Positions 28 to 58,680 of a stretch of DNA of 64,000 bases are shown here, in pieces (positions within the stretch are counted from its first letter, which is position 1; each line of letters begins with the position of its first letter). The position numbers were made by a program, and so were the translations under genes. Below the pieces are notes generated by a model. That model made no database searches. It was not told the DNA's origin and saw nothing but the letters and a program-made list of their open reading frames with translations. The stretch lies in sequence record PZ583741.1; one strand, given 5' to 3'. Origin of the DNA: a phage.

Positions 28-31
28 ATCA

Positions 32-1121: not shown

Positions 1122-1781
1122 TTAAAATCCTTCAATTGGAGTTGGTTTATGTTCGGTTTTTTCTTCCTGCGGTTCTGGCTGCTGTGGTTGCTGTTTGGCC
1201 AGTTTTGCAGGGTTAAATGATTCACCTGATACCATGAATTTAGCCTTCATCTCCTGATAAGCGCCAACAATAACGCGAGTTGCTGCATCATCACCACGAA
1301 ACGCCTTGTATTCTTCGCCATAGATTGAAGTTAATTCTTCCATGCTCGCTGCGTTTCGAATTAATGCGACTGCGTCTTTTGGTGATTTGCGAGCGGCATT
1401 ACCGTCATCATCAGCCTGAGCAATACCAAACATTGCCGCGATGGAATATCTGCGTGCGTACGTCATTGCGGAACCATACCCTTGCGCATCCTTCTTGGCT
1501 ACTGGCATTGGCATCACTGATGACATGTACTCGCCAGACTCATGCATTATCGTTGTTTCAAGTTTAAGCACATCCATTGAGTCGCCATCAATGGCATTCT
1601 GGATGATTATAAGACCATTAGCCTCAAGCGCTGGACGTATCGCATCAAGGAATGACTCAAGGTTTGCGTAATTGCTTTTCAGGTGTGGGTTTTTGGCGTT
1701 TTTCTTTGCGCCGCTACTCATCACCTTGCGAGCCTCAACCAGAGCCTTAATCAGATTTGCTTTCTGTTCCGAGAAAATCAT
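1122..1781 (-). CDS. putative single-strand annealing protein (Erf-like, family uncertain)
   Basis: 219 aa; conserved block DAQGYGSAMTYARRYSIAAMFGIAQADDDGN shared with the B paralog 45335..45985; sits next to exonuclease and SSB. Confidence 0.5.
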   Translation of the reverse strand: MIFSEQKANLIKALVEARKVMSSGAKKNAKNPHLKSNYANLESFLDAIRPALEANGLIIIQNAIDGDSMDVLKLETTIMHESGEYMSSVMPMPVAKKDAQGYGSAMTYARRYSIAAMFGIAQADDDGNAARKSPKDAVALIRNAASMEELTSIYGEEYKAFRGDDAATRVIVGAYQEMKAKFMVSGESFNPAKLAKQQPQQPEPQEEKTEHKPTPIEGF

Positions 1782-1798
1782 TTACATCACCTCACTAA

Positions 1799-2749: not shown

Positions 2750-2774
2750 TCATCATCACGTAAATGAATCTACA

Positions 2775-3215
2775 TCAATCCACATCAAAAGGCAAGCCAA
2801 AATAGGTCAACACTGCAATCTTTATCTGGTCGAGTCCACACGCCACCGCAGAGAATGCACCAGCGCTGGCGCTATCGTTGAGAAACGGTATCTGTCCTGG
2901 TTGCCATTTGCTAAGCGTTGAATCATGGCGCTTCAACTCTATCGTCGCTTTATGCCACCCACCCCCGGGCGTCAGGATTATCACATCAGACACCCCTGAC
3001 CTGACACCTTTCCTTGCGCGCGATGCAAGATGCTGCACTGAGTTGCTTTTGGTCTCCTGAGACGGATGGAACCACAGCACATCAGGAAACCGGTAATCCA
3101 TCCACCACTTGAACGCTATCAATTCGGAATCCTCAAGCGGACACTCGCCGCGGTAACCATCATCAAAAATTAATACCTTGTCACTCAGCTCATGCTGCTT
3201 GAATCGCTTTTTCAC
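2775..3215 (-). CDS. VRR-NUC domain nuclease
   Basis: 146 aa; D...IELKR PD-(D/E)XK core; homolog of B 52676..53095; overlaps helicase 3' end. Confidence 0.55.
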   Translation of the reverse strand: MKKRFKQHELSDKVLIFDDGYRGECPLEDSELIAFKWWMDYRFPDVLWFHPSQETKSNSVQHLASRARKGVRSGVSDVIILTPGGGWHKATIELKRHDSTLSKWQPGQIPFLNDSASAGAFSAVACGLDQIKIAVLTYFGLPFDVD

Positions 3216-5124: not shown

Positions 5125-5645
5125 TATTTTACCCTACCAAATTCACCATGATACTTTTTTGATGCTTCCGCATAAACTTTTGCTGCTTCTTCTTTTGTAT
5201 CATATCTGCCGAGCCATATTTTTTTATTATTTACATGTATAGAGCAAGTCCATTTTTTTGTTTGCTTGCAAAAACCAACCCCCTTTACACCGGATGTGTT
5301 ATGGCTTGGAATCCTCATGTTTCTTAAATTTCCATTAAAGTTTGTTTCTCTTAGATTTTCTATCCTGTTATTCAATCTATTACCATCTTTATGGTCTATT
5401 ATTAACTCAGGCCAATAACCATGCACTAAAGCCCAAATTATTCTATGAACCTTTATATCAACACCTAAAAAGCCAACCTGAAGATATCCACTTACAGTCT
5501 TAGAACCTGCAATAGCGCCACGTTTAACCCTGTTTGTTGTTGTTCTTTTCCATATGAGATTTATTCCGTCATATGAAAAATACTCCCGCAACGTGGATAC
5601 TGGTATTGACTTCTCTTTTAACTTCATCAATTCGAAATCATTCAC
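5124..5645 (-). CDS. HNH homing endonuclease with AP2-like DNA-binding domain
   Basis: 173 aa; HRIIWALVHG...IDHKDGNRLNNRIENL HNH motif then GVKGV...W AP2-like segment. Confidence 0.65.
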   Translation of the reverse strand: MNDFELMKLKEKSIPVSTLREYFSYDGINLIWKRTTTNRVKRGAIAGSKTVSGYLQVGFLGVDIKVHRIIWALVHGYWPELIIDHKDGNRLNNRIENLRETNFNGNLRNMRIPSHNTSGVKGVGFCKQTKKWTCSIHVNNKKIWLGRYDTKEEAAKVYAEASKKYHGEFGRVK

Positions 5646-5707
5646 TTTACGTTACCCTCATTCAGTGTTACGCTTAAAGCATACAAACAGTAACAGATGG
5701 AGTCAAC

Positions 5708-6658
5708 ATGTTTTCTTGGGAAGAGATACAACAAAAGATGATTGGAAATTGGGAGGCGGCACTACTGTCAATAGTCAACATAGACAGGAAAATTTTTTCT
5801 GGAAAACATCAACCATGCCCTCATTGCATGGGGGTTGACCGGTTCCGTTGGGATAATCACTTCGAAACAAAAGGCGACGGCGGAGCAATCTGCAATCAGT
5901 GCGGTTCCGGTAGTGGCATGAACTGGCTGATGAAACTCTCCGGCATGAGCTTTCCCGAAGCACTGGAGGCGCTGGGTGGATTCCTGAACATGCACCCGCG
6001 TGAAAAGCTGGAGGCAATCAGGAAGGAGCTGCCGAAGATAAATCACAACGATGACTTCATCACAGAGCAGGAAGTCGCAGCAATCATGGCTAAAACGACG
6101 CGTGTCTCGATGAATGAGTGGACTTTGATAAACGGTATTGGTTGCGACGTTAATGTCGCCAGAGGTAAATCTGGAGAGCTTATTGTGGTTGAGATGGTGC
6201 GTGCTGACACAATGAAGCCGTGCAACGTGGCATTCATTGGCATGGATGGTGATGCATTCAAAACATTTTATAAAGCAGGATACAACAAAGACTCAGCCAT
6301 AAACGGAAAACTCACGCGAGGCTCGATAAGCCCAATCGGAGAAGACAACGGAAAGTTCATTTATCTGGTATCTGATTATGCCGATGCATGGAAATGCCAT
6401 TACTTCACTGGCGCTCATGTCTGGTGTTGCTGGTCGCCGGAAAACATGTGGGAAGTGGTGCGTTCTGTTAGCGATGAGACGAAGGCGAGATTGCGCTGCA
6501 TAGTTAATTATAAATTTGACGAACTTTGCGCTGCGGAAAATTCAGGGCTTCCGGTGATGTTGCCTGATGATGCTGACACTATCAGGATGGCGAAGAGAAT
6601 CAGAAGAAAGATTTATGATGCTGGCGAGTTGATAGAGAAAATGTCAGTCAGCAGATAA
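5708..6658 (+). CDS. DNA primase (zinc-ribbon plus TOPRIM-like domain)
   Basis: 316 aa; CPHCMG...CNQCG zinc ribbon near N-terminus; homolog of B 49122..50045; divergent from helicase. Confidence 0.7.
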   Translation: MFSWEEIQQKMIGNWEAALLSIVNIDRKIFSGKHQPCPHCMGVDRFRWDNHFETKGDGGAICNQCGSGSGMNWLMKLSGMSFPEALEALGGFLNMHPREKLEAIRKELPKINHNDDFITEQEVAAIMAKTTRVSMNEWTLINGIGCDVNVARGKSGELIVVEMVRADTMKPCNVAFIGMDGDAFKTFYKAGYNKDSAINGKLTRGSISPIGEDNGKFIYLVSDYADAWKCHYFTGAHVWCCWSPENMWEVVRSVSDETKARLRCIVNYKFDELCAAENSGLPVMLPDDADTIRMAKRIRRKIYDAGELIEKMSVSR

Positions 6659-6661
6659 AAG

Positions 6662-6688
6662 AAACCCTCCAATCGGAGGGTTTTTGTT
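6662..6688. terminator. rho-independent terminator (ccctcc-aatc-ggaggg plus T-run), between convergent genes
   Basis: Hairpin and TTTTTGTT read directly. Confidence 0.6.
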
Positions 6689-6689
6689 A

Positions 6690-7094
6690 TCAGCGTTTCA
6701 TCTTGTCAATTTCATCGTCAATAATCTTTATTATCTCTCGCTTTGCATTCCTCCATGCATAAATGGCATCAAGCGAAGCTCTGTCTTTTGAATCACCGGT
6801 AGCTGTTGAATACAGGATTATGTCTCCCATCTTACAAAATGTATCTATGTAAACAGCCCTAAAAAGACCATCGCCGCAACTCCAGCACAAGCAATTATTT
6901 ATTTTCTTGCAATCATTACCAATGATTCCGGTGCTAAACAACTGAATCCAGCCAATAGGTTCACCAATGGAAATGTCATACTCATCACTATGACCACTAA
7001 CAGAGCACTCAAGACGGAACGTTCGATATTCATGCAGATTGAGACATAATGATCTGTAAATAAGGAATTTAGATCTTTTCTTAACGCTCATCAC
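6690..7094 (-). CDS. hypothetical Cys-rich protein
   Basis: 134 aa ORF, several Cys pairs; no family recognised. Confidence 0.35.
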   Translation of the reverse strand: MMSVKKRSKFLIYRSLCLNLHEYRTFRLECSVSGHSDEYDISIGEPIGWIQLFSTGIIGNDCKKINNCLCWSCGDGLFRAVYIDTFCKMGDIILYSTATGDSKDRASLDAIYAWRNAKREIIKIIDDEIDKMKR

Positions 7095-8683
7095 AACCCC
7101 CTCATAAATCTCATGCGCTTAACGGCAGCAGAAAGATAATTTCTAACCGTTGAGTTCATCCGCAGACCATCCCATGAACCATCACTGCACATCTTAATTG
7201 CTCTTGGATTATCCCTGTCCAGCATTAGTGGTGAATGTTTGTTCTCCTCAATAGCAAGAAGAACTTCATAAACAAATTTATCAGGCGTTAACGTGATGTT
7301 GTTCGAGTCAGCAGAATTGATTATCTTTTCGACTCTGTCACGGCACAGCTTGTTCTTTATAACAGACAAATAAGGCGTTTTAATGAATGCTTGTGATTCA
7401 CAAATTCGCTTTATTTTTTCAACAATGTTCGACCACTCAGTATTCTCAAGTCCATCAAATGCCTGTTCACCCTCAAGGAATCTTTTCAGCCCCGCGAGGT
7501 GTTCAAGAACAGTGAGATAACCCCACTCGATATGCTCCGTCGTAACTGATGGTGTCATTCCCTGACGACTTGACAGATCGGTATACGCCGCCAGAGTTGC
7601 AAGATCGACAATCATTAGACCCATGCGAGGGATAACATCACCAACAACACCATCGCAATCACCAAGCTCACTTTCCAGTTTCATAGACAGAGATCTGTGC
7701 AGTTTTTTCGCATTATCATCAGCCCATACAACGTGAGTTTTCGCGGTAAGAACCCTACCTTTCCACTCATTGATTATTTTTCTTGAAAGCGTACCACTCA
7801 CTTCCACATCCTTCATCGCTGGCATTTCCTCACCAGCAAGATGTCCAAGCTGGAACAGAACGCGACCCATACCGCCATCTTTCTGCCATGAACGCGCAGC
7901 ATCTATTCCCTGCTCTGGTGTGACAGTAATCAGCGGAACAAATTTTGCGTTTTCAATTCCACCGTCTTTTGTTGCAATTTCGTACTCATTCATTGCCGAC
8001 TTTAGCGCGCGCCCAACGCTGTGATCCATCATCGCAAGTCGCTTATAATCTATAACTCCTTTTCCATCATCGCCACCAGTAAGTGGCACTATCCATCCCT
8101 CAGCGCTTGCTGCCGCCATGATGCGTTTTGGGTTTTGTTCCCAAGTAAGGTTTTCAAGCAACTCCTTGATTATTGGTCTGTTAGGAACCCACACGCCGCC
8201 ATCAGTGAGGCCTCTATACCACGCCATAGTACCGCCAAGATATGCATTACGCGGGTTATTCCAGTCTTCAAGATGTTGCTTGTCATCATTCACAACGTAG
8301 AGCAAAGACCCACCTCCGGCAATCAGGTCTAACTGCATCTGTTTCGTAGATGTTGATTTAGACGCGCAAACTCTGGACCCTATTCCCAGCGCATTGGCAT
8401 ATGCCCTGACGAAACTCACCGGGGCACCCTTACCTGCACCAGAGCGAGCTACCAGAAATATGCCAGTATTGCAGATACTACCTGTTGGACCAATCAAGTA
8501 TCGTCCAGCCATCGCCTGAGCAAGACCCAAAGCGCCAGTTAAACGATATCTTCCACCTCCATCACGGCGCTCAAACCCCCTTGCGATCTCATCCATAAAC
8601 TCACCAAGTGCCCCGGGAGCATCCCGCTTTATGCCCATAGCCAGAGACTCAAAATCAATCGAACTCATCAATACACCATCCAT
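7091..8683 (-). CDS. P-loop NTPase, putative replication protein
   Basis: 530 aa; Walker A ARSGAGKGAP, Walker B-like LLYVVNDD; same relative position as B 58773..60356. Confidence 0.4.
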   Translation of the reverse strand: MDGVLMSSIDFESLAMGIKRDAPGALGEFMDEIARGFERRDGGGRYRLTGALGLAQAMAGRYLIGPTGSICNTGIFLVARSGAGKGAPVSFVRAYANALGIGSRVCASKSTSTKQMQLDLIAGGGSLLYVVNDDKQHLEDWNNPRNAYLGGTMAWYRGLTDGGVWVPNRPIIKELLENLTWEQNPKRIMAAASAEGWIVPLTGGDDGKGVIDYKRLAMMDHSVGRALKSAMNEYEIATKDGGIENAKFVPLITVTPEQGIDAARSWQKDGGMGRVLFQLGHLAGEEMPAMKDVEVSGTLSRKIINEWKGRVLTAKTHVVWADDNAKKLHRSLSMKLESELGDCDGVVGDVIPRMGLMIVDLATLAAYTDLSSRQGMTPSVTTEHIEWGYLTVLEHLAGLKRFLEGEQAFDGLENTEWSNIVEKIKRICESQAFIKTPYLSVIKNKLCRDRVEKIINSADSNNITLTPDKFVYEVLLAIEENKHSPLMLDRDNPRAIKMCSDGSWDGLRMNSTVRNYLSAAVKRMRFMRGL

Positions 8684-8997
8684 ACGCGCAAGAATTTACC
8701 ATGGATAACACCATGTTTCACCGTTAACACAGCACCCACCCTGTCAGCCTCAATTTTTAGCGCCCTCTGAAGTGACGCCATTGTCATCTGAAAACCTCGC
8801 TCTATGTCGTATGCGTAGCACCCATCTCTGCCACCAATCAAAATTGAAGTTGAATACCCGTTCTCAAAGTAAAACTGACACCCATCAGGAGCGGTAAGAT
8901 TATTTATCACGTCGTGAGCAAGCGATGTCGTAACAGGGAATATCGGAGCGCAACTCATACTCACCTCACTCAACTCGCTTAATGTGCAAAACTTCAT
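8668..8997 (-). CDS. hypothetical protein
   Basis: 109 aa ORF in minus-strand operon. Confidence 0.3.
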   Translation of the reverse strand: MKFCTLSELSEVSMSCAPIFPVTTSLAHDVINNLTAPDGCQFYFENGYSTSILIGGRDGCYAYDIERGFQMTMASLQRALKIEADRVGAVLTVKHGVIHGKFLRVWMVY

Positions 8998-9214
8998 CGA
9001 AATATGAGCACGTTCTGAATTTCATCCCAAAATCCTCACCAACCCTTCCGAGACACGCGCGAAATCTTTCAACAGAAAGCCCTTTATCTGCAATATCCTC
9101 ATAAGCAATTGAATTAACCTGGCCAACATCCATATGTTTTGCAACGCGATACACGAATTCCATCTTTGAACCATCACGATACATTTTGTTTCTCATAGTC
9201 ACCTCAATCCGCAT
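8966..9214 (-). CDS. hypothetical protein
   Basis: 82 aa ORF, first gene of minus-strand operon. Confidence 0.3.
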   Translation of the reverse strand: MRIEVTMRNKMYRDGSKMEFVYRVAKHMDVGQVNSIAYEDIADKGLSVERFRACLGRVGEDFGMKFRTCSYFDEVLHIKRVE

Positions 9215-9851
9215 TCCAACAGTAACTATAGATAAAAAATAAAATTAACGCAACGCAAAACAGGTCTAACCAGCAACAACAGCTACCACACTTAACAACT
9301 AGTCTGACCACCATCTCGTATCAGATATATGTGGATGGTGCCCGTCGTTTAATTTGTGCTCGATTTTTACCTAATTTACCGTATATTTATTGGTCAGTTT
9401 TTGCATAACTAATTGATTTATATGATTTACCGGTTTTACCGGAACTCTAAGGAGTATTTTCATCATTGAGAGTAGTAGTATATTAATTGGTCTAATTTTT
9501 AAATAACTCTAATAAAATCAATATATTAATATAAGAAAGTAACTTGCTTACTTATATAGGATTTACCGGGTAAAACCGGTAACTCCTCCGCATCCCGCGT
9601 CATTACTGGATTGATTTTTACCACCTGTAGGTAAATACAGTAGTTTTTAAGTCAGGATTGTTTTTGTAAGATGTTGATTACCGGTACTTTATTTGAAAAA
9701 CCGGGATTTACCGGGTTTTTGTTGTGTGATTAATAATTGCGCAATTGGTCATGTTTCAACAGAACACACTGATGCGACATCTGAAAATCATATTGACGTA
9801 GAATTACAACTGATGTAGATTGAACTCATCGAAACAAACGAGGGTGAAGAG
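9215..9851. promoter_or_regulatory. AT-rich divergent intergenic region with at least five (A/G)TTTACCGG(G)T repeats
   Basis: atttaccggttttaccgg, atttaccgggtaaaaccggtaa (palindromic), gattaccggt, ccgggatttaccgggttttt read directly; 640 bp without ORFs. Confidence 0.5.
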
Positions 9852-10037
9852 ATGAAAGAAGAAAGCACGTACAGCATTGACCAGATGAAGTTATTCAGCG
9901 ATATATGCATGGCATTGTCACAACAGGTTCCAAGCCTGCCTGCTGATATGCGCTCAAATGCCATCATTGATGCGGCAAACATGATTTGCGAGGCATATGC
10001 GATGACTGAAGATGAATATAAGGATTCGAAGAAATGA
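9852..10037 (+). CDS. hypothetical small protein
   Basis: 61 aa ORF starting the plus-strand operon. Confidence 0.35.
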   Translation: MKEESTYSIDQMKLFSDICMALSQQVPSLPADMRSNAIIDAANMICEAYAMTEDEYKDSKK

Positions 10038-10436
10038 CAGGCGCAGCATTCGAGCTTATCGCCAGTCTGGTTATCGCGGCATTCATTATCATCGCAGTGG
10101 CAGTTTATAAATCAGGATATAAGGAGTGACAGAATGAGCAGCTGGCATAATGAACACATCATGCAATGGTATCGTCGCCGCATTAAGACAATCATTAACT
10201 CTCACGAGGTGCAATAAATGGCAAAGACTATCTATCGTCGCGAGAAGCTGGAATAAGAACTCGGTCACGTTGGCGCGCAGAACTTCATGAGCAAGCAGGC
10301 ACGCAATGCAATGGAATCTATCCGCGTAAATCGCGTTGTGCGCGTGTTCAATGGCGAGGGTAAACGAAGAGTAATGGATGAGCTGATTATCGTATTTTGA
10401 CCTCGATTCAGCGCTCTTATTTTTAATGGTGATGAT

Positions 10437-10670
10437 ATGGCAAAAGTAAAAACATATGAGTTCTGGTTTGTGCAGAACAAAATTCATGCAAGCAAGATAA
10501 TCAAGCGAGCGCACTGGTGGAATAAGTGGCTAATCCTGTCAGGATGCATTGTGCTGGCAAAGTGCAAATTCAAAGCGATTGACATCACAGATGAGGATTC
10601 ACTCAAAATCGCAAAGATTGAGTTTGAAGAAGATGGCTATTACGAAGAAATTATGGGGGTTAGGGTATGA
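10437..10670 (+). CDS. hypothetical small protein
   Basis: 77 aa ORF. Confidence 0.35.
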   Translation: MAKVKTYEFWFVQNKIHASKIIKRAHWWNKWLILSGCIVLAKCKFKAIDITDEDSLKIAKIEFEEDGYYEEIMGVRV

Positions 10671-11068
10671 GTGAAGTTAAAACATACGCAGTGAATTGCA
10701 ATGACGCATGGCTAAACACCGAAGGTGATAACATCTCCGGGTCATACGTTAAGTACAAAGACCATCAGGAAGTGGTTGCCGCTATTGAGGCCAAGTGCGC
10801 GGCGCTAGCAGCGGAGAATGCGGCGCTTAAACAGTCGGAGAAGGAATTTAATAACTTCTGTCGTCAGGAGTACTACGGTTGGGAGGACAACTTCACGGAA
10901 ACCCCAGCCACCGATGATTTTCTGGTTGAAATTGAACGCAAAGCAATCCGCAAGTTCATTAACAGTATTGAACACATTCTTCGCGACAAGTTGTCACCGT
11001 ATGACACAGAAGAGATGCTTGAGGATATGCGTATTTTCCTGGAAGAGCAGAGTGGTGAGCAAAAATGA
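10667..11068 (+). CDS. hypothetical protein
   Basis: 133 aa ORF, start overlaps upstream stop (ATGA). Confidence 0.4.
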   Translation: MSEVKTYAVNCNDAWLNTEGDNISGSYVKYKDHQEVVAAIEAKCAALAAENAALKQSEKEFNNFCRQEYYGWEDNFTETPATDDFLVEIERKAIRKFINSIEHILRDKLSPYDTEEMLEDMRIFLEEQSGEQK

Positions 11069-11367
11069 CAATCACAAAACAACGTGTAGAAGAAATAATA
11101 TCGCGCATTGAAATGTATGGGCATGGTGCCGGGTATACCGCAGAAGAGGTTTATGACCTTGCTATACTGGCGCTGAATTTATCAAATATCGCAAACCTGA
11201 AGCGATACGAACTTGATATGGATGGTTGCGACTCGTGCGGTCAGGATTGTGGCGCTGACATGAGCGAAGACCCTGAAGGCGAATTTGTCATGTTCGACGA
11301 TGTTGTCAAGATGGTTCAGTTCGACACTACCAACCTGCAATTCGAAAGCCTGGCTAAAAGTGAATAG
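11065..11367 (+). CDS. hypothetical protein
   Basis: 100 aa ORF, overlapping start. Confidence 0.4.
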   Translation: MTITKQRVEEIISRIEMYGHGAGYTAEEVYDLAILALNLSNIANLKRYELDMDGCDSCGQDCGADMSEDPEGEFVMFDDVVKMVQFDTTNLQFESLAKSE

Positions 11368-11512
11368 CTACCCGTTCATATTAATTATCAGTGCGCTCTA
11401 TGTGTCGCACGCTTTAGTGGAGGCATACCAATGAACAACCACAAACGACGCCGATACACCACTGGCGCTAAAATCTTCCTTGCTGTTTATGTGCTGGCAC
11501 TTGTAGCAGCTG

Positions 11513-11710
11513 TTGCAGGAGTTGTGCATTATGTTTAACGATATCAGTGACGCAATGCAAAACATGTGGGAACGCTACTGGGACGGTATGATGACGTGTC
11601 ATTACATGATGGTGCAGCTCGGCAATCGCATTGAGGTTGTACCTGACAATGGTGTGCATGACATCAAGTACATGTGCTCTACGAGGGATTATGCTAATGC
11701 AAACAACTAA
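11513..11710 (+). CDS. hypothetical small protein
   Basis: 65 aa ORF. Confidence 0.3.
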   Translation: MQELCIMFNDISDAMQNMWERYWDGMMTCHYMMVQLGNRIEVVPDNGVHDIKYMCSTRDYANANN

Positions 11711-11870
11711 AGCCAAGGTTTGGCAACTCGCCAAGCAGCACGAATTGGACGATTTTATAGCGAAGGTTGCCAAAACATTCCCAGATGCGCTTGAAATCGT
11801 TCATGTGCAGACGCAAACAGAAAATGCATGGTGCTATGCTGGCAAGCGTGGTAATGATAGTGTACAATAA
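11691..11870 (+). CDS. hypothetical small protein
   Basis: ATG at 11691 preceded by gaggga; ORF-track start 11631 is probably too far upstream. Confidence 0.3.
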   Translation: MLMQTTKAKVWQLAKQHELDDFIAKVAKTFPDALEIVHVQTQTENAWCYAGKRGNDSVQ

Positions 11871-11914
11871 ACGCATAACCACCATTGCTTTCACTCATAT
11901 CATCACCCAACCTT

Positions 11915-11942
11915 TGACCCGCCTTGTGCGGGTTCTTTTTTG
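11915..11942 (+). terminator. rho-independent terminator (acccgcc-ttgt-gcgggt plus T-run)
   Basis: Read directly. Confidence 0.55.
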
Positions 11943-12018
11943 TCATTAACAGCATGGCGTAGAATCTGTTACAATATCGAATAACGGGAAAAAAGCGGAA
12001 TATTGATAGGGTTTATAT

Positions 12019-12435
12019 ATGGCTAAAAAGCTATTCAGTAAAGAAAATCAACCACAAAATAAACGTGGGAAAGACAAGCGTAAGTTGCTCGTTGAAGCTC
12101 TTGAGAGAAAGGGGTTTAGTGAGGAAAAGCTCTATGACGCCATCGTTGAGATGGCGATGATTGAGCGTGATACTGCAATGATGAAAGAGCTTATCGTTCG
12201 ATTCAGTCCGTTACCTAAGCCTGTCGCCCCTGTTTTTGAAGTTGATTTCCCTGATGACGGAACTCCGGTAGAGAAGATTGATGCTGTTATTCGTGGCATA
12301 GCTGCTGGTGTTATACCTGTGGACATTGGAAAGACATTTGCGGAGGTTATCAGGACTGGGCTTGATATTGCTGAAGTTACCGAACTCGCCGCGCGCCTTG
12401 AGCGACTGGAGAAATTACTGGCGCAGCAACAGTAA
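12019..12435 (+). CDS. putative terminase small subunit
   Basis: 138 aa, basic N-terminus, coiled-coil C-terminus, immediately upstream of large terminase; positional inference. Confidence 0.4.
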   Translation: MAKKLFSKENQPQNKRGKDKRKLLVEALERKGFSEEKLYDAIVEMAMIERDTAMMKELIVRFSPLPKPVAPVFEVDFPDDGTPVEKIDAVIRGIAAGVIPVDIGKTFAEVIRTGLDIAEVTELAARLERLEKLLAQQQ

Positions 12436-12534
12436 CTGATTTATAATAATTAATGCGGCTAGGGGGCACCCGAAAAGCGACTCATCACCGCCTGCCGCAT
12501 TCACTTCAATGATGCCCTGATGAGGAATCTATAT

Positions 12535-15054
12535 ATGGCACGCAAAAGACTGTCAGCACCAGCAATTGAAAAACTCGAAGAGATTATTGGCGATGGCGTG
12601 ATTGATACGCCTGAATCCGCGGTGTTCGGTGTTGTTAATACAGATAAGCAGATTGTTCGCAAACTAAAAATGACGCAAAGCGGAGTTGATGACGTTAGCG
12701 ACTCTGATATTAACGTTGATCACCTGATACCAGAAAAGCTGGAAAAGCTACTTTACCCCAAGCGAAATAAGATTGTGTTTGGCGGGCGCGGATGCTTAGC
12801 CATCGGCACAATGGTTAGGATGTTTGATGGTAGCCTAAAACGCGTAGAGGATATCGCTGTTGGCGATAAGGTTATGGGTCCAGACAGTAAACCACGAAAT
12901 GTTTTAAGCATCTGCCGTGGGTTTGATGACATGTATACGGTTCATCAAAAATATGCTGAGGACTACACTGTCAACTCAAGTCACATACTGTCATTACGAA
13001 AGATTCCATCTGCTATCAGTGACGAGACAAAAACACCGGATGGTAAAAGAATTTATCGTTATTACCCAAATGACCCTGAAATACTTAATATCGGTGTTTC
13101 AGAATATTTGTCGCGCGCAACTTCCACGAAGTTCCGTCATGTCTTTAAAGGGTGGCGAACAGGATGGGATTTTCAGGAACAAAGCGTTCCAATTGACCCG
13201 TACTTTCTTGGTTTATGGTTAGGTGATGGCTCATCTCGTAGTGTTGAAGTATGCACGCCTGATCCAGAGATAGTTGACTACCTTCACGGTGTGGCAAGCC
13301 AATATGGGATGCAGGTAAAGGTTCGCGACGATGATAGATGCCCTGTCTATGCGATAACTAATGGTCGAGCTGCTGGCATGGGGAAAAACACCAACCCTTT
13401 ACTAACTAAAATGCAGCAGCTTGGGGTGATTAATAATAAACACATACCTGACTGCTATATTAAAAACAGCAGACAGGTAAGACTTCAGATTCTGGCTGGG
13501 CTATTGGATACTGATTCGCATTACCACAAAGAAAAGAAAAGCTATTGTTTTACATCAATAAATAAAGATATAGCCTTCTCTTTGATGGATGTGGCAAGAT
13601 CACTTGGCTTCAAGTCAAGCATAATCAAAAAGACCGATGTCACCTTTGAGTATAAAGGTGAGAAAAGAATATACGAAAAGGATGTGTGGGAGGTGTTCGT
13701 TAGTGGTGAACTTCATACAATCCCATGCCGAGTAAAAAGGAAGATAGCAGAGAAAACCAAGTCAACCCGTGGAAAGATGACTGAGGTGTCATTGTCTTAT
13801 GCCGGGCATGGTGTATACGCTGGATTCACTCTTGATGGCGATCATCTTTTCTTGCTTGCTGATGGCACAGTTACACACAACAGCGGAAAAACAAGAACAG
13901 TAACTACAATACTTACGGAGCGTGCACGCTTTAAGCCTGACAGGATAGCTTGTTTCCGTGAGATTCAGCAGTCTATTGAGGATAGTTCGTATCAGGAACT
14001 GAAAGACGAGATTGACAGGAAGGGCGAGACAAAAGAGTTTCGCGTAATCAACAACGAAATAACACACAAGGTAACGAAAGCAAAGTTCCGCTTTAAAGGT
14101 CTGTATCGCAACCAGACGACCGTTAAAGGCTTTGCTGGCATTACAGTCGCTTGGGTTGAGGAGGCTGAAAACGTTAGCCAGACAAGCTGGGAAATCCTCA
14201 CTCCAACTGTTCGCGCTGATGGCTCTGAGATATGGGTGACATTCAACCCAAATAAGGAGCATGACCCCACATGGAAGACGTGGGTTGAGCCGTTTTATAG
14301 CAAACTGCGCTCAAGTGGCGGTATTTACGAAGACGAAGAAAACCTGATTATTGAATGTAACTATTCAGATAATCCGTGGTTTTGGGATACGCCACTACCC
14401 AGCCAAATGCAACGAATGAAAGAGACAGACTTCGACCGCTATCAATGGGTTTGGGGTGGTCGCTTTAACAAGAGGAATGACGAGCAGGTCTTTGGCGGCA
14501 AATGGCGCATTGATAACTTTGAGGTTAAACCTGAATGGCACGGCCCATACTTCGGGATGGACTTCGGGTTTTCCACTGATCCTACCGCAATGATTGAAGT
14601 TTACATCGAAGAACTACCAGGTGCACGGCGCAACATTTATATTAATCGCGAATATGGCAAGGTTGGCCTTGAGATTACCGATACACCAGCTGCGATGGAG
14701 CAATCATTCCCGATGGCTAAGCGCGCGCGATGGTATGCAGACTGCGCTCGACCGGAAACCATCAGCCACATCAAGCGTTCTGGCTTTGATATTCATCCAT
14801 GCACAAAATGGCCGGGAAGCGTTGAGGATGGCGTAACGTGGCTGCGCGGCTGCGACAGTATCATCATCCATGAGCGATGCAAGGAAATGCAGAATGAAGC
14901 GGCAATGTACAGCTATAAGGTTGATAAGCTGACCGGAAATGTACTCACGGATATTGTTGATGCATATAACCATTACTGGGATGCCGTTCGCTATGCGCTT
15001 AATGACCACATCGTCCAGCGCGGTAGCGGAATGCTAATCCGGCGCAGGAGATAA
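12535..15054 (+). CDS. terminase large subunit, intein-containing precursor
   Basis: Exteins give GGRG|SGKT Walker A, WVEEAE, VTFNPN, GMDFGF..DPTA, ADCARPE, NHYWDAVRYAL; ORF track starts at 12520, ATG at 12535 has a better RBS. Confidence 0.85.
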   Translation: MARKRLSAPAIEKLEEIIGDGVIDTPESAVFGVVNTDKQIVRKLKMTQSGVDDVSDSDINVDHLIPEKLEKLLYPKRNKIVFGGRGCLAIGTMVRMFDGSLKRVEDIAVGDKVMGPDSKPRNVLSICRGFDDMYTVHQKYAEDYTVNSSHILSLRKIPSAISDETKTPDGKRIYRYYPNDPEILNIGVSEYLSRATSTKFRHVFKGWRTGWDFQEQSVPIDPYFLGLWLGDGSSRSVEVCTPDPEIVDYLHGVASQYGMQVKVRDDDRCPVYAITNGRAAGMGKNTNPLLTKMQQLGVINNKHIPDCYIKNSRQVRLQILAGLLDTDSHYHKEKKSYCFTSINKDIAFSLMDVARSLGFKSSIIKKTDVTFEYKGEKRIYEKDVWEVFVSGELHTIPCRVKRKIAEKTKSTRGKMTEVSLSYAGHGVYAGFTLDGDHLFLLADGTVTHNSGKTRTVTTILTERARFKPDRIACFREIQQSIEDSSYQELKDEIDRKGETKEFRVINNEITHKVTKAKFRFKGLYRNQTTVKGFAGITVAWVEEAENVSQTSWEILTPTVRADGSEIWVTFNPNKEHDPTWKTWVEPFYSKLRSSGGIYEDEENLIIECNYSDNPWFWDTPLPSQMQRMKETDFDRYQWVWGGRFNKRNDEQVFGGKWRIDNFEVKPEWHGPYFGMDFGFSTDPTAMIEVYIEELPGARRNIYINREYGKVGLEITDTPAAMEQSFPMAKRARWYADCARPETISHIKRSGFDIHPCTKWPGSVEDGVTWLRGCDSIIIHERCKEMQNEAAMYSYKVDKLTGNVLTDIVDAYNHYWDAVRYALNDHIVQRGSGMLIRRRR
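12793..13881 (+). mobile_element. intein (363 aa) with LAGLIDADG homing endonuclease domain inserted in terminase Walker A
   Basis: Starts with Cys (tgc 12793), ends His-Asn (cac aac 13876-13881), +1 residue Ser; LGLWLGDGS and LAGLLDTDS motifs; flanks reconstitute GGRGSGKT. Confidence 0.8.
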
Positions 15055-15060
15055 AAATAA

Positions 15061-15088
15061 AGCCCTCATCTGAGGGCTACTTTCATTT
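15061..15088. terminator. hairpin agccctca-tc-tgagggct after terminase
   Basis: Read directly; weak U-run. Confidence 0.4.
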
Positions 15089-15235
15089 AATCAATGCTCG
15101 TCGACCAAGTTCAGCAATCCATTCCGCCGCATCCTCTATTTTGTTGAACTCATAAAGATGCTTGCCGTCTTCCATGACATAAAACAGAATGCGACCAAAT
15201 TTATTTTTCTTTGCGCTAAATTTAACATCTTTCAT
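15083..15235 (-). CDS. hypothetical small protein (50 aa)
   Basis: Short minus-strand ORF between terminators; not in ORF track. Confidence 0.2.
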   Translation of the reverse strand: MKDVKFSAKKNKFGRILFYVMEDGKHLYEFNKIEDAAEWIAELGRRALIK

Positions 15236-15387
15236 ATTTTCACTCCTTCCGTTTCATGAGTTCAATCTACATCACAAGCATATCCACGTCAACATTTATT
15301 GTTGTTGATAAATCTGCATCACCACACTTGACCAATCTACACCGAGCGCATAGTATAATCTACATCAGGCTTACCGGAGATATCACT

Positions 15388-15594
15388 ATGCGCAGCTATG
15401 CAGGATTTACACAGGAGGAAAAAGAACAGGTTTATTCACTGGCGCGGGCTGGCGTGCCTGATGAGGTGATTTGCTGTCGGTATGATATCGACGAGGACTT
15501 CCTGCTGCGTGTTATTGATGACGTTTTCGTTAACCTGCAAGAGAAGCGAGGATATAAGGGTATCTGCTGCAAGAATGATTTTTTGAGAGGGTGA
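15388..15594 (+). CDS. hypothetical small protein
   Basis: ATG at 15388 after ggaga; track ORF 15256 trimmed. Confidence 0.35.
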   Translation: MRSYAGFTQEEKEQVYSLARAGVPDEVICCRYDIDEDFLLRVIDDVFVNLQEKRGYKGICCKNDFLRG

Positions 15595-15756
15595 TGTGGT
15601 GATTATTGAAAAAACAAATGAATGCCACAGTCTGTATATAAATACAGAACTAGTCATCAATTTAAGGCAATGTGACGACTGGGTTCAGCTTGACAAACAC
15701 CAAGCCGCGCAACTAATCGAAGTCCTGCAACGCTGGGTTAATGGTGAGGAGATTGA

Positions 15757-15966
15757 ATGATGAGCGTTTATTTTTATTGCGGTCACATTGAGCGACAAGG
15801 AAGCGTAGCGAGCGTTGGTAGTTTCTGCGGATTATCAATTGGACCTGATGCTGTTAGCGCATATGAAGATGTCATGAGAGCGCAGGTGAAGGAAATCCAG
15901 TCAATCACTGAGAGCGGCGCTTTTAATCTTTCTGTTATTTTTGATAAATTCGAAAAGGTGGAGTGA
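15757..15966 (+). CDS. hypothetical small protein
   Basis: 69 aa ORF overlapping next start. Confidence 0.35.
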   Translation: MMSVYFYCGHIERQGSVASVGSFCGLSIGPDAVSAYEDVMRAQVKEIQSITESGAFNLSVIFDKFEKVE

Positions 15967-16442
15967 TGATTGATTGGGTATCTTTATTTGATTATGATGG
16001 AGCGTCTTTGGTGTGGAAGCATGGAAGGGGAGGTGTTTCCGTTGGCAGCATTGCGGGAACGGTTAATGCTGGCGGGTACATTCAGCTCAAAGTTAACGGA
16101 AGATTTTATTATGCCCACAGAATTATATGGGAAATGCATAACGGTCCTATACCGGAAGGTATGGAGATTGACCACATAAATCATAACAAGGCGGACAACA
16201 GGATTGAGAATTTGCGTCTTGTTCGACACAAAACTAACACTAAAAACGCGCCTAAATACAAAAATAACACCAGCGGCGTTACTGGTGTGAGTTGGTATAA
16301 GAGAGATAAAAAATGGCTAGCACAAATAATGGTTGATGGCAATTACATACGTCTTGGTCTTTTTGATAATTTCGAAGCAGCAGTCGACGTGAGAAAGGAA
16401 GCAGAACTAAGGTATGGATTTCACAAGAACCACGGCGCTTGA
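15963..16442 (+). CDS. HNH homing endonuclease with AP2-like domain
   Basis: 159 aa; HRIIWEMHNGPIPEGMEIDHINHNKADNRIENLRLV, near-identical block in B ORF 22049..22561. Confidence 0.75.
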   Translation: MMIDWVSLFDYDGASLVWKHGRGGVSVGSIAGTVNAGGYIQLKVNGRFYYAHRIIWEMHNGPIPEGMEIDHINHNKADNRIENLRLVRHKTNTKNAPKYKNNTSGVTGVSWYKRDKKWLAQIMVDGNYIRLGLFDNFEAAVDVRKEAELRYGFHKNHGA

Positions 16443-16470
16443 TGATATAATGACCCTTGCAGAAATGTGA

Positions 16471-17764
<1,294 letters not shown>

Positions 17765-55856: not shown

Positions 55857-56330
55857 ATGATTTACGTATTTGATATTGACGGAACTATAGCTAATAATGA
55901 GCATAGAAATCACCTTTTACCATCCAGTGACCTTCACTTGACTTCAAGTTGGAAGTATTACAATAAAGCCTGTTCTGGAGACTCACCAATAATTCCAATG
56001 ATAAACATGATGAATGCGTTAGCGGAGTTATCGCAAGTTTGCATCATGACCTCCAGAAGCGATGAAGTTGAATGGAGAACACTTGAGTGGCTTCAGGATA
56101 ATGAGGTTGAGTATGATTCGATATACATGAGAAATCGACATGACAACCGAAAAGATTACAAAATAAAAGAGGAATGGCTTAATAAAATCAGTGGTGGCGA
56201 CAAAAGCAATGTGGTTATTTTTGAAGATAACCCACAAGTAATTAAGCACCTAAGAAGTTGCGGATACACCGTTATGGCTGTATGTGAATATGAAGACCTA
56301 CCTAAAGACTGCGAATCTCACGGAGAATGA
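55857..56330 (+). CDS. HAD-superfamily phosphatase-like protein
   Basis: 157 aa; N-terminal FDIDGT motif. Confidence 0.45.
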   Translation: MIYVFDIDGTIANNEHRNHLLPSSDLHLTSSWKYYNKACSGDSPIIPMINMMNALAELSQVCIMTSRSDEVEWRTLEWLQDNEVEYDSIYMRNRHDNRKDYKIKEEWLNKISGGDKSNVVIFEDNPQVIKHLRSCGYTVMAVCEYEDLPKDCESHGE

Positions 56331-56887
56331 AAATGACTAAATTATTTATCCTTAATGGCCCAGCTGGAGTAGGCAAGGACACTATAGCGGATATCATGGT
56401 TGAGACTGGTGTCGCCAAAGAAAAGGTATCATTCAAGTCACCAATGTTTAACGTTGCAAAAGGAATGCTATCAAGCGATGAATTTGATGGATTCATCAAG
56501 AATTACGACAATAGAGGCTATAAGGAATCACCTCATGGATTTATTGGCGGTATGACAGTTCGTGAATTTATGATTTGGATTAGCGAGTCTGTAATGAAGC
56601 CAGTCTTTGGTGATGATGTTTTCGGTAAAAGGCTAGCCCAGTCACTTGGTGATGGTTGCTACATTTGCGCTGACGGTGGATTTGCTAGCGAGATTGAGCC
56701 ACTGATCGACGCTGGTGTTAATGTAACGTTAATCAGATTGCATAGGGCAGGGTACACATTTGATGGCGATAGTCGCTCATACATTCACGGGGTGTGCGCA
56801 AGAGAAATTGATGTTCGTGTTGTTGATTGTGATATTGATGGAACATCAGCATTGGTAAGGCACGTAATAAATAGCACGAATTGCTAA
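56327..56887 (+). CDS. P-loop kinase (dNMP kinase-like)
   Basis: 186 aa; LFILNGPAGVGKDTIAD P-loop near N-terminus. Confidence 0.45.
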   Translation: MKMTKLFILNGPAGVGKDTIADIMVETGVAKEKVSFKSPMFNVAKGMLSSDEFDGFIKNYDNRGYKESPHGFIGGMTVREFMIWISESVMKPVFGDDVFGKRLAQSLGDGCYICADGGFASEIEPLIDAGVNVTLIRLHRAGYTFDGDSRSYIHGVCAREIDVRVVDCDIDGTSALVRHVINSTNC

Positions 56888-56889: not shown

Positions 56890-56955
56890 ATAATAATAAA
56901 AACTTAGTTATCATTAACACATCGAAACGAGATGAAACAAAAGAGGAAGAACAAA

Positions 56956-57132
56956 ATGACTAAAATGATTTATTGCACCAAAAACAACTCCAAGACGCTG
57001 CCATTTACAGTTAACCAGCCGTACAATGCAGAGTATCAAGGTGACGGATACTACAAGATTTATGGCGACGATATGACGTGGATTTTAGCGCCGATTGATG
57101 GTTCGCTGGTTGAATTTATTATCGCAGACTAG
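56956..57132 (+). CDS. hypothetical small protein
   Basis: ATG 56956 after aagaggaag. Confidence 0.35.
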   Translation: MTKMIYCTKNNSKTLPFTVNQPYNAEYQGDGYYKIYGDDMTWILAPIDGSLVEFIIAD

Positions 57133-57156
57133 CGCATCTAAAACATAGCTTTACAA

Positions 57157-57186
57157 GTGGGGGGCCTTTTGGCTCCCCTTTTTTAT
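57157..57186 (+). terminator. rho-independent terminator (ggggggcc-tttt-ggctcccc plus T-run)
   Basis: Read directly. Confidence 0.6.
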
Positions 57187-57263
57187 GCTTCTTTTCCGAG
57201 CGGTGCTAATGTATCATTCTTTTACTAACTTAAACATTGACAAATACACAAATGGAGGATCAC

Positions 57264-57479
57264 ATGAGGGAAGTAATCAACGCTGCTACGGCGTCAACTG
57301 GAGGGGCTGCGGTAACTGGCGCGGCAACTGGTCAAATGACTATAGCAATAATCAGCCTTATCGCTCTAATCATTTTTGGTGCGTGGGGAGCTTACTGGAA
57401 GTTTAAAGATAGCCAGGCTATTCGGCGAGCGCTTGAGTCTGGCGACCTAAAAACAGCAATCAATATAAGGAGCAAATAA
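57264..57479 (+). CDS. holin (probable pinholin)
   Basis: 71 aa from ATG 57264 (ggagga RBS); TM segment MTIAIISLIALIIFGAWGAYW; directly upstream of SAR endolysin. Confidence 0.45.
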   Translation: MREVINAATASTGGAAVTGAATGQMTIAIISLIALIIFGAWGAYWKFKDSQAIRRALESGDLKTAINIRSK

Positions 57480-57965
57480 ATGAAGCAAAAGATGCTAATT
57501 AGCGCGGCTACGGCTGCGGCAATATACATCGCAGCGCCGCTTATTGAGCTCGTTGAGGGCGTGGAGAACAAGCCTTACATGGACATTGCCGGAATCCCTA
57601 CAGTTTGTTCCGGTATTACTGGTCCTGACGTTGTTTGGGGTAAGACTTACAGCAACAGGGAGTGCCGTAACCTGCTGGAGAAGCACATCCAGATTCATGC
57701 TAAGTATGTTCAGGATGCAGTTACCTACCCAATCGCACCGCAGACAAGGGCGGCGTTAATCAGCTTTAGCTATAATGTTGGCGGCTCAGCGATGAGGAAG
57801 TCTACGGCTGTAAGGTTAATCAACCAGGGTAAAGTGGAGCAAGGTTGTAAGGCTTTGAGCCTTTGGAATAAAGCTACCGTTAATGGCAAGAAGGTTGTGG
57901 TTAAGGGCTTGGTAAACCGCAGGAATGAGGAGATTAAGTTATGCTTAAGCGGATTGCAGCGTTAG
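57480..57965 (+). CDS. endolysin, lysozyme-like with N-terminal SAR signal-anchor
   Basis: 161 aa; hydrophobic N-terminus MLISAATAAAIYIAAPLI then E-x8-D-x5-T catalytic spacing. Confidence 0.6.
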   Translation: MKQKMLISAATAAAIYIAAPLIELVEGVENKPYMDIAGIPTVCSGITGPDVVWGKTYSNRECRNLLEKHIQIHAKYVQDAVTYPIAPQTRAALISFSYNVGGSAMRKSTAVRLINQGKVEQGCKALSLWNKATVNGKKVVVKGLVNRRNEEIKLCLSGLQR

Positions 57966-58330
57966 TAATGTGCGTAGCTTTATATGGATGTTCAGCAACA
58001 TCTGCTCTGACCGGATTAATTGGAAGTAAGCCTGAAGTTACGGCTCAGGCTGGTGCCGAGAACAATAAGGTTGGTGTTGGGTTAACGAACAAGGTTGACT
58101 CCAGTAACTCCAGCGATGCCACAGTTAAGGATTCCAGCGTGGGCTCACTTGATAGTTCTAGCGGGAAAAAGACTGCTGATAATTCGATTAAGGCCTCTAC
58201 AATCACTGCCGAAAAGATTGAGATTACCAATAACGACTCATCAGCGCTTCCGTGGATTGGAACAGGAGCGATGGGTTTGCTGGTTCTGATTCTCCTTTCC
58301 TTAATCTTAAGACGTAAAAAAGCCTCCTAA
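57941..58330 (+). CDS. unimolecular spanin (N-terminal lipoprotein signal, C-terminal TM)
   Basis: 129 aa; lipobox LYGC|S; C-terminal WIGTGAMGLLVLILLSLILRRKK; overlaps endolysin 3' end. Confidence 0.55.
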   Translation: MLKRIAALVMCVALYGCSATSALTGLIGSKPEVTAQAGAENNKVGVGLTNKVDSSNSSDATVKDSSVGSLDSSSGKKTADNSIKASTITAEKIEITNNDSSALPWIGTGAMGLLVLILLSLILRRKKAS

Positions 58331-58340
58331 TGGAGGCTAT
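58321..58340. terminator. bidirectional terminator (agcctcc-taat-ggaggct with A-run and T-run)
   Basis: Read directly; between convergent spanin and 58345 ORF. Confidence 0.65.
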
Positions 58341-58344
58341 ATTT

Positions 58345-58680
58345 TTAGCTAAATAACTCTTCGTCAGTCATTGTCCCTATGTTCATCATCTCTTTTATGT
58401 ACTGGCTTTCATACCCGTTAAGCGCCTCAAAGTTGAAACAAAATGGCCTCTTCAAGCTACCCTTACTAACAAACTCACCGCACTTGCCATCAATGTATCC
58501 GGCACTCAACATCTTCGCGCAGAACTCCTTTGAGGCAGCGCTGCAAAACTCTCTATGTGACAATCCTGCCGCCTTACTGAATCTCTGAGAGTCCTTATGT
58601 TGGTAGATGAATCGCGCCAAATGCTGGCGCGTAAAGTATGAATACGACTCACAGAACTTAAATATATCGAGTATGAACAT
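58345..58680 (-). CDS. hypothetical protein
   Basis: 111 aa ORF. Confidence 0.35.
   Translation of the reverse strand: MFILDIFKFCESYSYFTRQHLARFIYQHKDSQRFSKAAGLSHREFCSAASKEFCAKMLSAGYIDGKCGEFVSKGSLKRPFCFNFEALNGYESQYIKEMMNIGTMTDEELFS

Follow-up and report, generated by a model that had tools for sequence, protein, structure and literature searches.

The segment 57264-58330 of the window, that is, of the whole 64,000-nt stretch of phage DNA analysed here, is very probably the late lysis cassette of a T1-like coliphage of the Drexlerviridae (Braunvirinae), which, judging from the sequence, would act by the mechanism proposed below. It consists of three genes on the plus strand, all preceded by strong Shine-Dalgarno sites: a holin gene of the T1 gp13 family (57264..57479, 71 aa, GGAGGA), an endolysin gene encoding a GH24, or T4-lysozyme-type, muramidase (57480..57965, 161 aa, AAGGAG), and a gene for a unimolecular spanin (u-spanin) of the T1 gp11 family (57941..58330, 129 aa, GAGGAG). 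All three open reading frames were found at the coordinates given in the initial annotation, which had described the genes as overlapping. This is true of the endolysin and spanin genes, which share 25 nt in different frames, but not of the holin and endolysin genes, as the TAA stop codon of the former directly abuts the ATG of the latter (gap 0, same frame).

BLASTP comparison with T1 gp13, gp12 and gp11 yields identities of 56, 46 and 38% (E 5e-31, 7e-45 and 9e-25, respectively), the holin alignment being gap-free. The PHROG matches are holin (phrog_2877, E 5e-37, full length, residues 1-71/71), endolysin (E 1e-49) and Rz-like spanin (phrog_1804, E 7e-49), and the endolysin matches the Pfam Phage_lysozyme family (PF00959, E 2e-35). 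A DNA comparison gives 98.2% identity with the holin/endolysin/spanin cassette annotated in Escherichia phage vB_EcoS_CEB_EC3a (Braunvirinae, family Drexlerviridae) and 89% with phage Rtp; 91 phage records match the DNA, 84 of them across 80% or more of the region. The ratios of synonymous to non-synonymous codon differences relative to Rtp are 20:2 for the holin, 36:13 for the endolysin and 26:10 for the spanin; all three genes are under purifying selection. Given the PHROG and Pfam E values, the 91 DNA matches and the synonymous excess relative to Rtp, the match is not due to chance. Hence the assignment of the three genes as holin, SAR-type endolysin and unimolecular spanin stands, based on homology to the T1 proteins, near-identical cassettes in the Drexlerviridae and the literature on the family, where T1-like cassettes are described as a pinholin, a SAR endolysin and a u-spanin (PMC6139136, PMC4559738, PMC11447400, PMC13164509). 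As a near-identical module is annotated in published phage genomes, the cassette is already known, and the assignment is correct but ordinary.

The cassettes of EC3a (NC_047812, gp27-gp25) and Rtp (rtp63-rtp65) have the same three genes with the same order, spacing and flanking terminators, and differ from the window by a handful of substitutions. The EC3a holin is 100% identical both in nucleotide and in protein sequence, whereas the endolysin and the spanin are 98% and 96% identical in protein; the Rtp cassette proteins are 92-97% identical. Unlike the window, EC3a has neither the PNKP-type phosphatase nor the dNMP kinase, both of which are situated here between the exonuclease gene and a small DUF7244 gene. 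In T1 itself, the order of genes is the same and the protein lengths are nearly equal (71/71, 161/162 and 129/133 aa, here and in T1, respectively); the cassette is likewise located between the exonuclease/gp14 and the convergent gp10/helicase genes and has a terminator after the spanin. However, the T1 genes abut with 1-nt overlaps, shorter than the endolysin/spanin overlap observed here. The genome containing the cassette, the second one in the window, had been proposed to be T1-like, which is supported at the level of the family, although its nearest relatives are the Braunvirinae (Guelphvirus, Rtpvirus) and not Tunavirus.

The DUF7244 gene, whose product belongs to the SH3 clan, lies just upstream of the cassette on the plus strand (56956..57132; PF23896, E 2e-29; phrog_4788). 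The open reading frame opens at 56932, and the likely start is Met9 at 56956; the Pfam match covers residues 11-66 of the ORF product, and a 58-aa homologue is annotated in EC3a. The SH3 gene was proposed to be an auxiliary component of the lysis module, with the syntenic order exonuclease-SH3-holin-endolysin-spanin (PMC13164509). Between this gene and the holin gene, there is a hairpin resembling an intrinsic terminator, followed by a T-run, on the plus strand (57159..57188), with an 8-bp stem containing seven GC pairs and then TTTTTT (MFE -17.9 kcal/mol, z -3.3); EC3a has an annotated terminator at the equivalent position. A scan for sigma-70 promoters from this terminator to the holin gene yielded no convincing candidate. 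On the other side, a bidirectional terminator hairpin (58321..58338, both strands; MFE -14.1 and -14.2 kcal/mol, z -3.3 and -3.7 by strand) overlaps the spanin stop codon and separates the cassette from the convergent minus-strand gene 58345-58680. Terminators are annotated at the equivalent site after the spanin gene in EC3a, T1, KP36 and Rogue1.

The endolysin is a true homologue of its counterparts in phage 21 and DLP12, being 43% identical to RrrD. Its best solved relatives are the SAR endolysins RrrD (4zpu) and R21 (3hde), with E about 1e-27, and the alignment reaches into the N-terminal segment. The E-x8-D-x5-T spacing of the catalytic residues, suggested earlier, is confirmed as E26 (57555-57557), D35 (57582-57584) and T41 (57600-57602), and the triad is invariant in nine aligned homologues, including RrrD. 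The N-terminus features K2 and K4 followed by an uncharged segment of 18 residues, 5-22 (57492-57545), MLISAATAAAIYIAAPLI. With 50% Gly/Ala/Ser/Thr and a mean Kyte-Doolittle (KD) hydropathy of 1.98, it is comparable to the SAR segment of RrrD (62% and 1.39), in agreement with its initial description as an Ala/Gly-rich, weakly hydrophobic segment of the SAR type. Equivalent uncharged hydrophobic segments are present in the endolysins of T1, Rtp, KP36 and Rogue1. The SAR segment has no cysteine (the first one being C43), as expected for the R21 type (class II) and in contrast to P1 Lyz with its disulfide isomerisation; the Gly/Ala-rich N-terminal anchor of R21 and RrrD also lacks cysteines. On the other hand, RrrD has a seven-residue linker, TGPSGND, joining its SAR segment to the catalytic Glu, and the endolysin of the window lacks this linker. 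The single-sequence AF2 model of the endolysin (pLDDT 45.1) was too poor for use.

Another relative is 57_3Lys from phage vB-EcoS_57-3 (Veterinaerplatzvirus). Its first 20 residues are the same except for one position (MKQKLLISAATAAAIYIAAP vs MKQKMLISAATAAAIYIAAP), and the numbering E26/D35/T41 is the same; the two proteins are called near-identical here with reference to these 20 residues and the triad. 57_3Lys was described as a class II SAR endolysin causing azide-sensitive, that is, SecA-dependent lysis (bioRxiv 10.64898/2026.09.09.750462). For the endolysin of the window, we infer that the SAR segment is not cleaved and is released from the membrane.

The spanin combines an N-terminal lipoprotein signal with a C-terminal transmembrane helix, and thus has the u-spanin topology ascribed to it in the initial annotation. 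The signal (residues 1-16, 57941-57988) is formed by MLKR, a hydrophobic stretch and L-Y-G preceding Cys17 (57989-57991). The lipobox had been written as LYGC|S; the lipoprotein signal with Cys17 is retained, but the cut is shifted to LYG|C, as signal peptidase II cuts before the cysteine. The sequence MLKRIAALVMCVALYG-C17 passes a PROSITE PS00013-type pattern requiring the cysteine at position 15-35, Lys or Arg among the first seven residues and no charge at positions -10 to -5. At the same time, Tyr at position -2 deviates from the strict consensus [LVI][ASTVI][GAS]C; the lipobox is LSGC in Rtp, T1 and Rao1, and LYGC does not occur among the lipoboxes in the part of the SpaninDB supplements that was searched. 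G16, C17 and S18 are invariant in eight aligned homologues. The +2 residue of the mature protein is Ser18 and not Asp, which, by the Asp at +2 rule of Lol sorting, is consistent with the outer-membrane location.

The C-terminal transmembrane segment of the spanin, residues 105-123 (58253-58309), WIGTGAMGLLVLILLSLIL, has KD 2.34 and a summed Hessa scale of -2.07 and is followed by RRKKAS; the single-sequence AF2 model has a helix at 105-127. This model, like that of the endolysin too poor for use, has a mean pLDDT of 57.6, and residues 28-104 form a low-confidence coil. The periplasmic domain is rich in Ser, Thr and Asn and contains no cysteine, the only two cysteines being C11 in the signal peptide and the lipidated C17; in T1 gp11, in contrast, a cysteine is located inside the C-terminal transmembrane segment. 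Another trait of the T1 gp11 family is a periplasmic domain made mostly of beta strands and not of coiled coil; for the RTP spanin, 86 periplasmic residues, five helical and 26 in strands, are listed (SpaninDB supplement). To belong to the T1 gp11 family, a protein should share 40% identity or more with a member across no less than 40% of the length (Kongari et al. 2018, PMC6139136). The spanin of the window shares 38% identity with T1 gp11 itself (126 residues compared), but 92%, from end to end, with the 129-aa spanin of Rtp, which is a listed member of this family (Table 5 in PMC6139136), and it reaches the cut-off through the latter. Phage 21 and DLP12 differ in having two-component Rz/Rz1 spanins. 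A search for an embedded Rz1-like o-spanin yielded a single ORF in an alternative frame (58095-58289, TTG start), which was rejected, having no lipobox.

The holin has one strong transmembrane segment, residues 25-43 (57336-57392, KD 2.28), and an N-terminal Gly/Ala/Thr-rich segment, residues 4-22 (57273-57329), which is weakly hydrophobic (KD 0.91, summed Hessa scale +6.7); only about 2-5 residues lie between them. The protein ends in a basic, cytoplasmic tail. Alignment of five holin sequences shows 21 invariant columns. The protein is recognised by PHROGs only: no significant match, and no holin family, was found in Pfam or NCBIfam. A weak match to the gp49 holin of Drulisvirus F19 (E 5e-4) comes from a single pairwise comparison. 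The S21-type pinholin EssD, the DLP12 homologue of S21, is similar in its length of 71 residues and in that the hydrophobicity of its first segment is weak and that of the second strong, but it has no detectable homology to the holin considered here (BLASTP E 0.76).

Two alternative readings, concerning the endolysin and the spanin, have little probability. The endolysin N-terminus could be an ordinary cleavable Sec signal, yielding a soluble periplasmic enzyme controlled in some other way. This is improbable, although the segment does have an n-region/h-region layout, and an N-terminal signal of 20 aa is reported to be predicted for 57_3Lys by both SignalP 6.0 and DeepTMHMM (bioRxiv 10.64898/2026.09.09.750462). 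In the initial annotation, a formal prediction of a cleavable signal was named as an argument against the SAR segment, and in a sense such a prediction exists through this near-identical protein; it does not refute the interpretation, since predictors of this kind do not distinguish a SAR domain from a signal that is cleaved. Moreover, the sole small-x-small site at the hydrophobic end, I17-A18-A19, is followed by Pro20, and proline at +1 blocks cleavage by signal peptidase I, a heuristic argument; the remaining Ala-x-Ala sites are in the middle of the hydrophobic core. The segment aligns with the SAR region of R21 and RrrD and, among the Braunvirinae, shows the same degree of conservation as the remainder of the protein. 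Finally, if an active muramidase were secreted freely, lysis would set in while assembly was still under way. Even less credible is a different role of the third gene, for instance, as a lipoprotein of the Cor/Llp type involved in superinfection exclusion. Its product is indeed a small phage lipoprotein with no significant match in Pfam or NCBIfam, being recognised by PHROGs only. However, it is homologous over the full length to T1 gp11, which complements the lysis defect of lambda Rz/Rz1 mutants (PMC6139136), the C-terminal transmembrane segment is retained in all eight aligned homologues, and the gene is always the last one in the lysis cassette of the compared phages.

The case of the holin is less clear. 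It had been called a pinholin, which agrees with the customary label in the field and with the position next to a SAR endolysin gene, adjacency to such a gene being one of the criteria for pinholins; what does not fit is the absence of similarity to EssD and the marginal first transmembrane segment. The label would rest on the association with the SAR endolysin. Pinholins make nanometre-scale holes, which depolarise the membrane without letting a folded endolysin through, and such a hole size is presumed here from this association; the literature searched contained no experimental report of hole size for a T1-type holin. It is possible, if somewhat doubtful, that the 71-aa protein is a holin other than a pinholin, either of a single-pass class of its own (N-out, C-in) or forming large holes. 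With such a holin, too, the collapse of the membrane potential would be enough to trigger the SAR endolysin, and in phage N4 a SAR endolysin is reported to work with a holin in a recent preprint. In favour of this possibility, there is no similarity to EssD/S21, and residues 25-43 form the single robust transmembrane segment: the N-terminal segment falls below the KD threshold of 0.9 in the KP36 and Rogue1 homologues, and in the latter it consists of 16 uncharged residues bounded by two Asp. The GenBank notes on T1 and KP36 also say "single transmembrane domain". Against it, the hydrophobicity of the N-terminal segment is no lower than that of the first segment of EssD by KD (0.91 vs 0.70), and the summed Hessa values are similar (+6.7 vs +7.7), while the first transmembrane segment of S21 was reportedly shown to be releasable. 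In the annotations of lysis specialists, too, the T1-type holin is a pinholin of class II, with the N-in, C-in topology (PMC4559738, PMC11447400, PMC6139136). Should the T1-type holins form a separate single-pass N-out/C-in class, which we consider tentatively, the Gly/Ala/Thr-rich N-terminus would be periplasmic, and the invariant FGxxGA motif together with the conserved cytoplasmic tail would control hole formation.

With the cassette read as holin, SAR endolysin and u-spanin, it would act on the three layers of the Gram-negative envelope one after another. The 161-aa muramidase would be exported by the host Sec system and kept inactive, tethered to the inner membrane by the SAR segment 5-22, while the 71-aa holin would accumulate in the inner membrane and, at the programmed time, permeabilise and depolarise it. 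Upon the loss of the proton-motive force, the SAR segment would leave the bilayer, and the released endolysin would refold in the R21 manner, given that the SAR segment has no cysteine, and cut the peptidoglycan. The 129-aa u-spanin would be anchored by the lipid on Cys17 in the outer membrane and by the C-terminal helix in the inner membrane; when the wall is gone, it would disrupt the outer membrane, presumably through fusion with the inner one.

The cassette is of little importance beyond annotation. It confirms the second genome in the window as that of a Drexlerviridae phage, similar to Rtp and Guelphvirus, and establishes where the spanin gene, truncated in some public records, correctly starts. 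Whether the T1-type holins are pinholins is not specific to this window, but is a question for the whole Drexlerviridae family.

The lysis cassette of the second phage genome of the window consists of three genes on the plus strand, encoding a holin (57264–57479, 71 aa, Shine-Dalgarno GGAGGA, stop TAA), an endolysin (57480–57965, 161 aa, AAGGAG, TAG) and a spanin (57941–58330, 129 aa, GAGGAG, TAA). The initial annotation described all three as overlapping. This holds for the endolysin and spanin genes, which share 25 nt in different frames, but the holin and endolysin genes merely abut: the endolysin ATG directly follows the holin stop codon in the same frame, with zero overlap. Hairpin terminators are situated on both sides, at 57159–57188 upstream (−17.9 kcal/mol, z −3.3) and at 58321–58338 downstream, the latter being bidirectional and covering the spanin stop codon. 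A promoter scan identified no promoter for the cassette.

The PHROG profiles for holin, endolysin and Rz-like spanin match essentially full length (E 5e-37, 1e-49 and 7e-49, respectively), and the endolysin matches Pfam Phage_lysozyme (E 2e-35). At the nucleotide level, 91 phage records match the region 57150–58400. The top one, Escherichia phage vB_EcoS_CEB_EC3a (98.2% identity, query coverage 100%), has these genes annotated as holin, endolysin and Rz-like spanin. Phage Rtp matches at 89%, with synonymous to non-synonymous codon differences of 20:2 (holin), 36:13 (endolysin) and 26:10 (spanin); this synonymous excess in all three genes reflects purifying selection on the reading frames. Given the concordance of profiles, DNA matches and codon differences, we consider the three genes real. 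By sequence the cassette is not new, being 98% identical to the annotated one, and its family is explicitly covered in PMC6139136, PMC4559738, PMC11447400 and PMC13164509.

In phage T1 the holin, endolysin and unimolecular spanin (u-spanin) genes gp13, gp12 and gp11 stand in the same order, and BLASTP identities to their products are 56%, 46% and 38% (E 5e-31, 7e-45 and 9e-25). The neighbourhood is also shared: a gene for a DNA repair exonuclease precedes the cassette, a terminator follows the spanin, and further downstream lie a small convergent gene and a helicase gene, represented in the window by minus-strand genes for an uncharacterised 111-aa protein and a DUF3987 helicase. The T1-like identity proposed for this genome is correct at the family level, as the region from about 17,650 to 64,000 is a Braunvirinae-type genome of the Drexlerviridae; by genus it is closest to Guelphvirus and Rtpvirus, not to Tunavirus. 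Phages G8, EC3a, SU57 and PCEc3 show about 88–94% identity to it at 75–86% coverage, as estimated from two searched stretches of 22–25 kb. Coverage by any single public phage reaches at most about 86% in either stretch, so by sequence the genome may represent an as yet undescribed species within a known genus. The first 17.6 kb of the window belong to another siphophage, one of the Segz_1/ASO78B type. Two unrelated phage genomes are joined in the window: positions 1–17650, matching Salmonella phage Segz_1 and E. coli ASO78B-type siphophages at about 91–93%, and 17652–64000, a nearly complete Drexlerviridae (Braunvirinae) genome.

The endolysin has the noted E-x8-D-x5-T spacing as E26/D35/T41, invariant in all nine aligned sequences, including RrrD (the DLP12 homologue of phage 21 R21) and a Drulisvirus endolysin. 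Among solved structures, RrrD (4zpu) and R21 (3hde) come closest, with E about 1e-27; these alignments start at residue 12, so the N-terminal hydrophobic segment is partly covered. This segment, residues 5–22 (MLISAATAAAIYIAAPLI), is uncharged, 50% Gly/Ala/Ser/Thr and free of Cys, is preceded by K2 and K4, and appears to match the R21 class of signal-anchor-release (SAR) endolysins rather than the P1 Lyz class. The TGPSGND linker that joins anchor and catalytic helix in RrrD is missing from the window endolysin. The sole small-x-small site at the end of the segment is I17-A18-A19, followed by Pro20; Pro at +1 blocks cleavage by signal peptidase I.

A 2026 preprint characterised 57_3Lys, the endolysin of a Veterinaerplatzvirus phage: azide, a SecA inhibitor, suppressed lysis on its induction, and its authors obtained a 20-aa N-terminal signal with SignalP 6.0 and DeepTMHMM (10.64898/2026.09.09.750462). 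The first 20 residues of 57_3Lys differ from the window endolysin at one position, and the E26/D35/T41 numbering is the same. A signal-peptide call is what the initial annotation had set against a SAR anchor, but as these predictors do not separate SAR anchors from cleaved signals, the call does not refute the SAR interpretation, and a releasable anchor is still more probable than a cleaved signal.

The spanin segment MLKRIAALVMCVALYG-C17-S contains the lipobox LYGC (57983–57991, plus strand) and passes a PROSITE-type lipoprotein pattern, but not the strict consensus [LVI][ASTVI][GAS]C, because of Tyr at −2. The lipoprotein signal of the initial annotation is retained, with the cut moved from LYGC|S to LYG|C. 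LYGC is common to the window, EC3a and G8, whereas Rtp, 12397II, Rao1 and T1 have LSGC; it is absent among the spanin lipoboxes in the SpaninDB supplements searched. G16, C17 and S18 are invariant in all eight homologues, and Ser at +2 indicates that the protein is sorted to the outer membrane. The predicted C-terminal transmembrane helix, residues 105–123, is strongly hydrophobic (KD 2.34) and precedes RRKK. There is no periplasmic Cys, as in all 58 u-spanins surveyed by Kongari et al.; the same study notes that unusual lipoboxes such as AWAC work, places RTP in the T1 gp11 family and reports complementation of a lambda RzRz1 defect by T1 gp11 (PMC6139136).

The window spanin is 92% identical to a 129-aa Rtp protein. 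The Rtp and G8 spanins, rtp65 (3282–3671 of the Rtp locus) and EcG8_027 (1201–1590 of the G8 locus), are annotated from an internal Met (MCVAL...) as 120 aa, which deprives the lipoprotein signal of its basic n-region; the 129-aa start exists in both and agrees with the window gene. A T1-type u-spanin, 52% identical to that of the window, is also seen in Klebsiella phage F19, a Drulisvirus podophage of the Autographiviridae (1801–2205 of its locus), where it lies upstream of the holin and endolysin (order spanin–holin–endolysin). Its presence in another family suggests that the u-spanin gene has moved between phage families.

The holin has one robust transmembrane domain (TMD), residues 25–43 (KD 2.28), and its C-terminal tail is basic, which places the C-terminus in the cytoplasm. 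The N-terminal residues 4–22 (VINAATASTGGAAVTGAAT) have very low hydrophobicity (KD 0.91, summed Hessa scale +6.7), comparable to that of the first segment (0.70 and +7.7) of EssD, the DLP12 homologue of S21. The counterpart in the KP36 holin is weaker; in Rogue1 two Asp flank a stretch of just 16 uncharged residues. The T1 and KP36 database records give a "single transmembrane domain", while the Sushi and TLS papers describe the T1-type holin as a two-TMD pinholin of class II. No sequence similarity between the window holin and EssD was found, and a literature search yielded no experiment on hole size in T1-type holins. Hence, of the pinholin assignment, a holin abutting a SAR-type endolysin gene is retained, but the label, though accepted, is inferred from the association with a SAR endolysin.

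In five phages whose holins are only 39–58% identical overall, the T1-type family shows an invariant motif, F38-G39-x-x-G42-A43, where the TMD meets the cytoplasm, and a cytoplasmic tail that is unusually conserved, at D49, S50, A52, A56, L57, G60, D61, A65, I68 and R69 (residues 38–69, plus strand, 57375–57470). This suggests a specific interaction, not merely a charged tail.

Directly upstream of the holin, beyond the terminator, lies a gene for a small DUF7244 protein of the SH3 clan (ORF 56932–57132). As the profile match begins at residue 11, translation probably begins at Met9 (56956), to which the start of the 58-aa EC3a homologue corresponds. Such genes are frequent companions of the lysis module, and a 2026 paper proposed the protein as its putative auxiliary component in Drexlerviridae (PMC13164509). 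Between the exonuclease and the DUF7244 gene are a PNKP-type HAD phosphatase (55857–56330) and a dNMP kinase (56327–56887). KP36 has the same pair, an HNH endonuclease occupies the slot in T1 and G8, and in EC3a it is empty; this slot ahead of the lysis module looks like a gene-exchange hot spot.

Single-sequence AlphaFold models of the spanin and endolysin were too poor to use. Homology, motifs and gene order in the window best support a pathway of a holin or pinholin, SAR endolysin and u-spanin, as described for phages 21 and T1. Spanin function and Sec dependence were demonstrated only on relatives and would apply here by analogy; we infer the size of the hole, that the anchor stays uncleaved and that the membranes fuse. 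The muramidase would be exported via Sec and stay tethered to the membrane until depolarisation triggered by the holin. Once released, it would refold and degrade the wall, and the spanin would link the two membranes, leading to disruption of the outer membrane.
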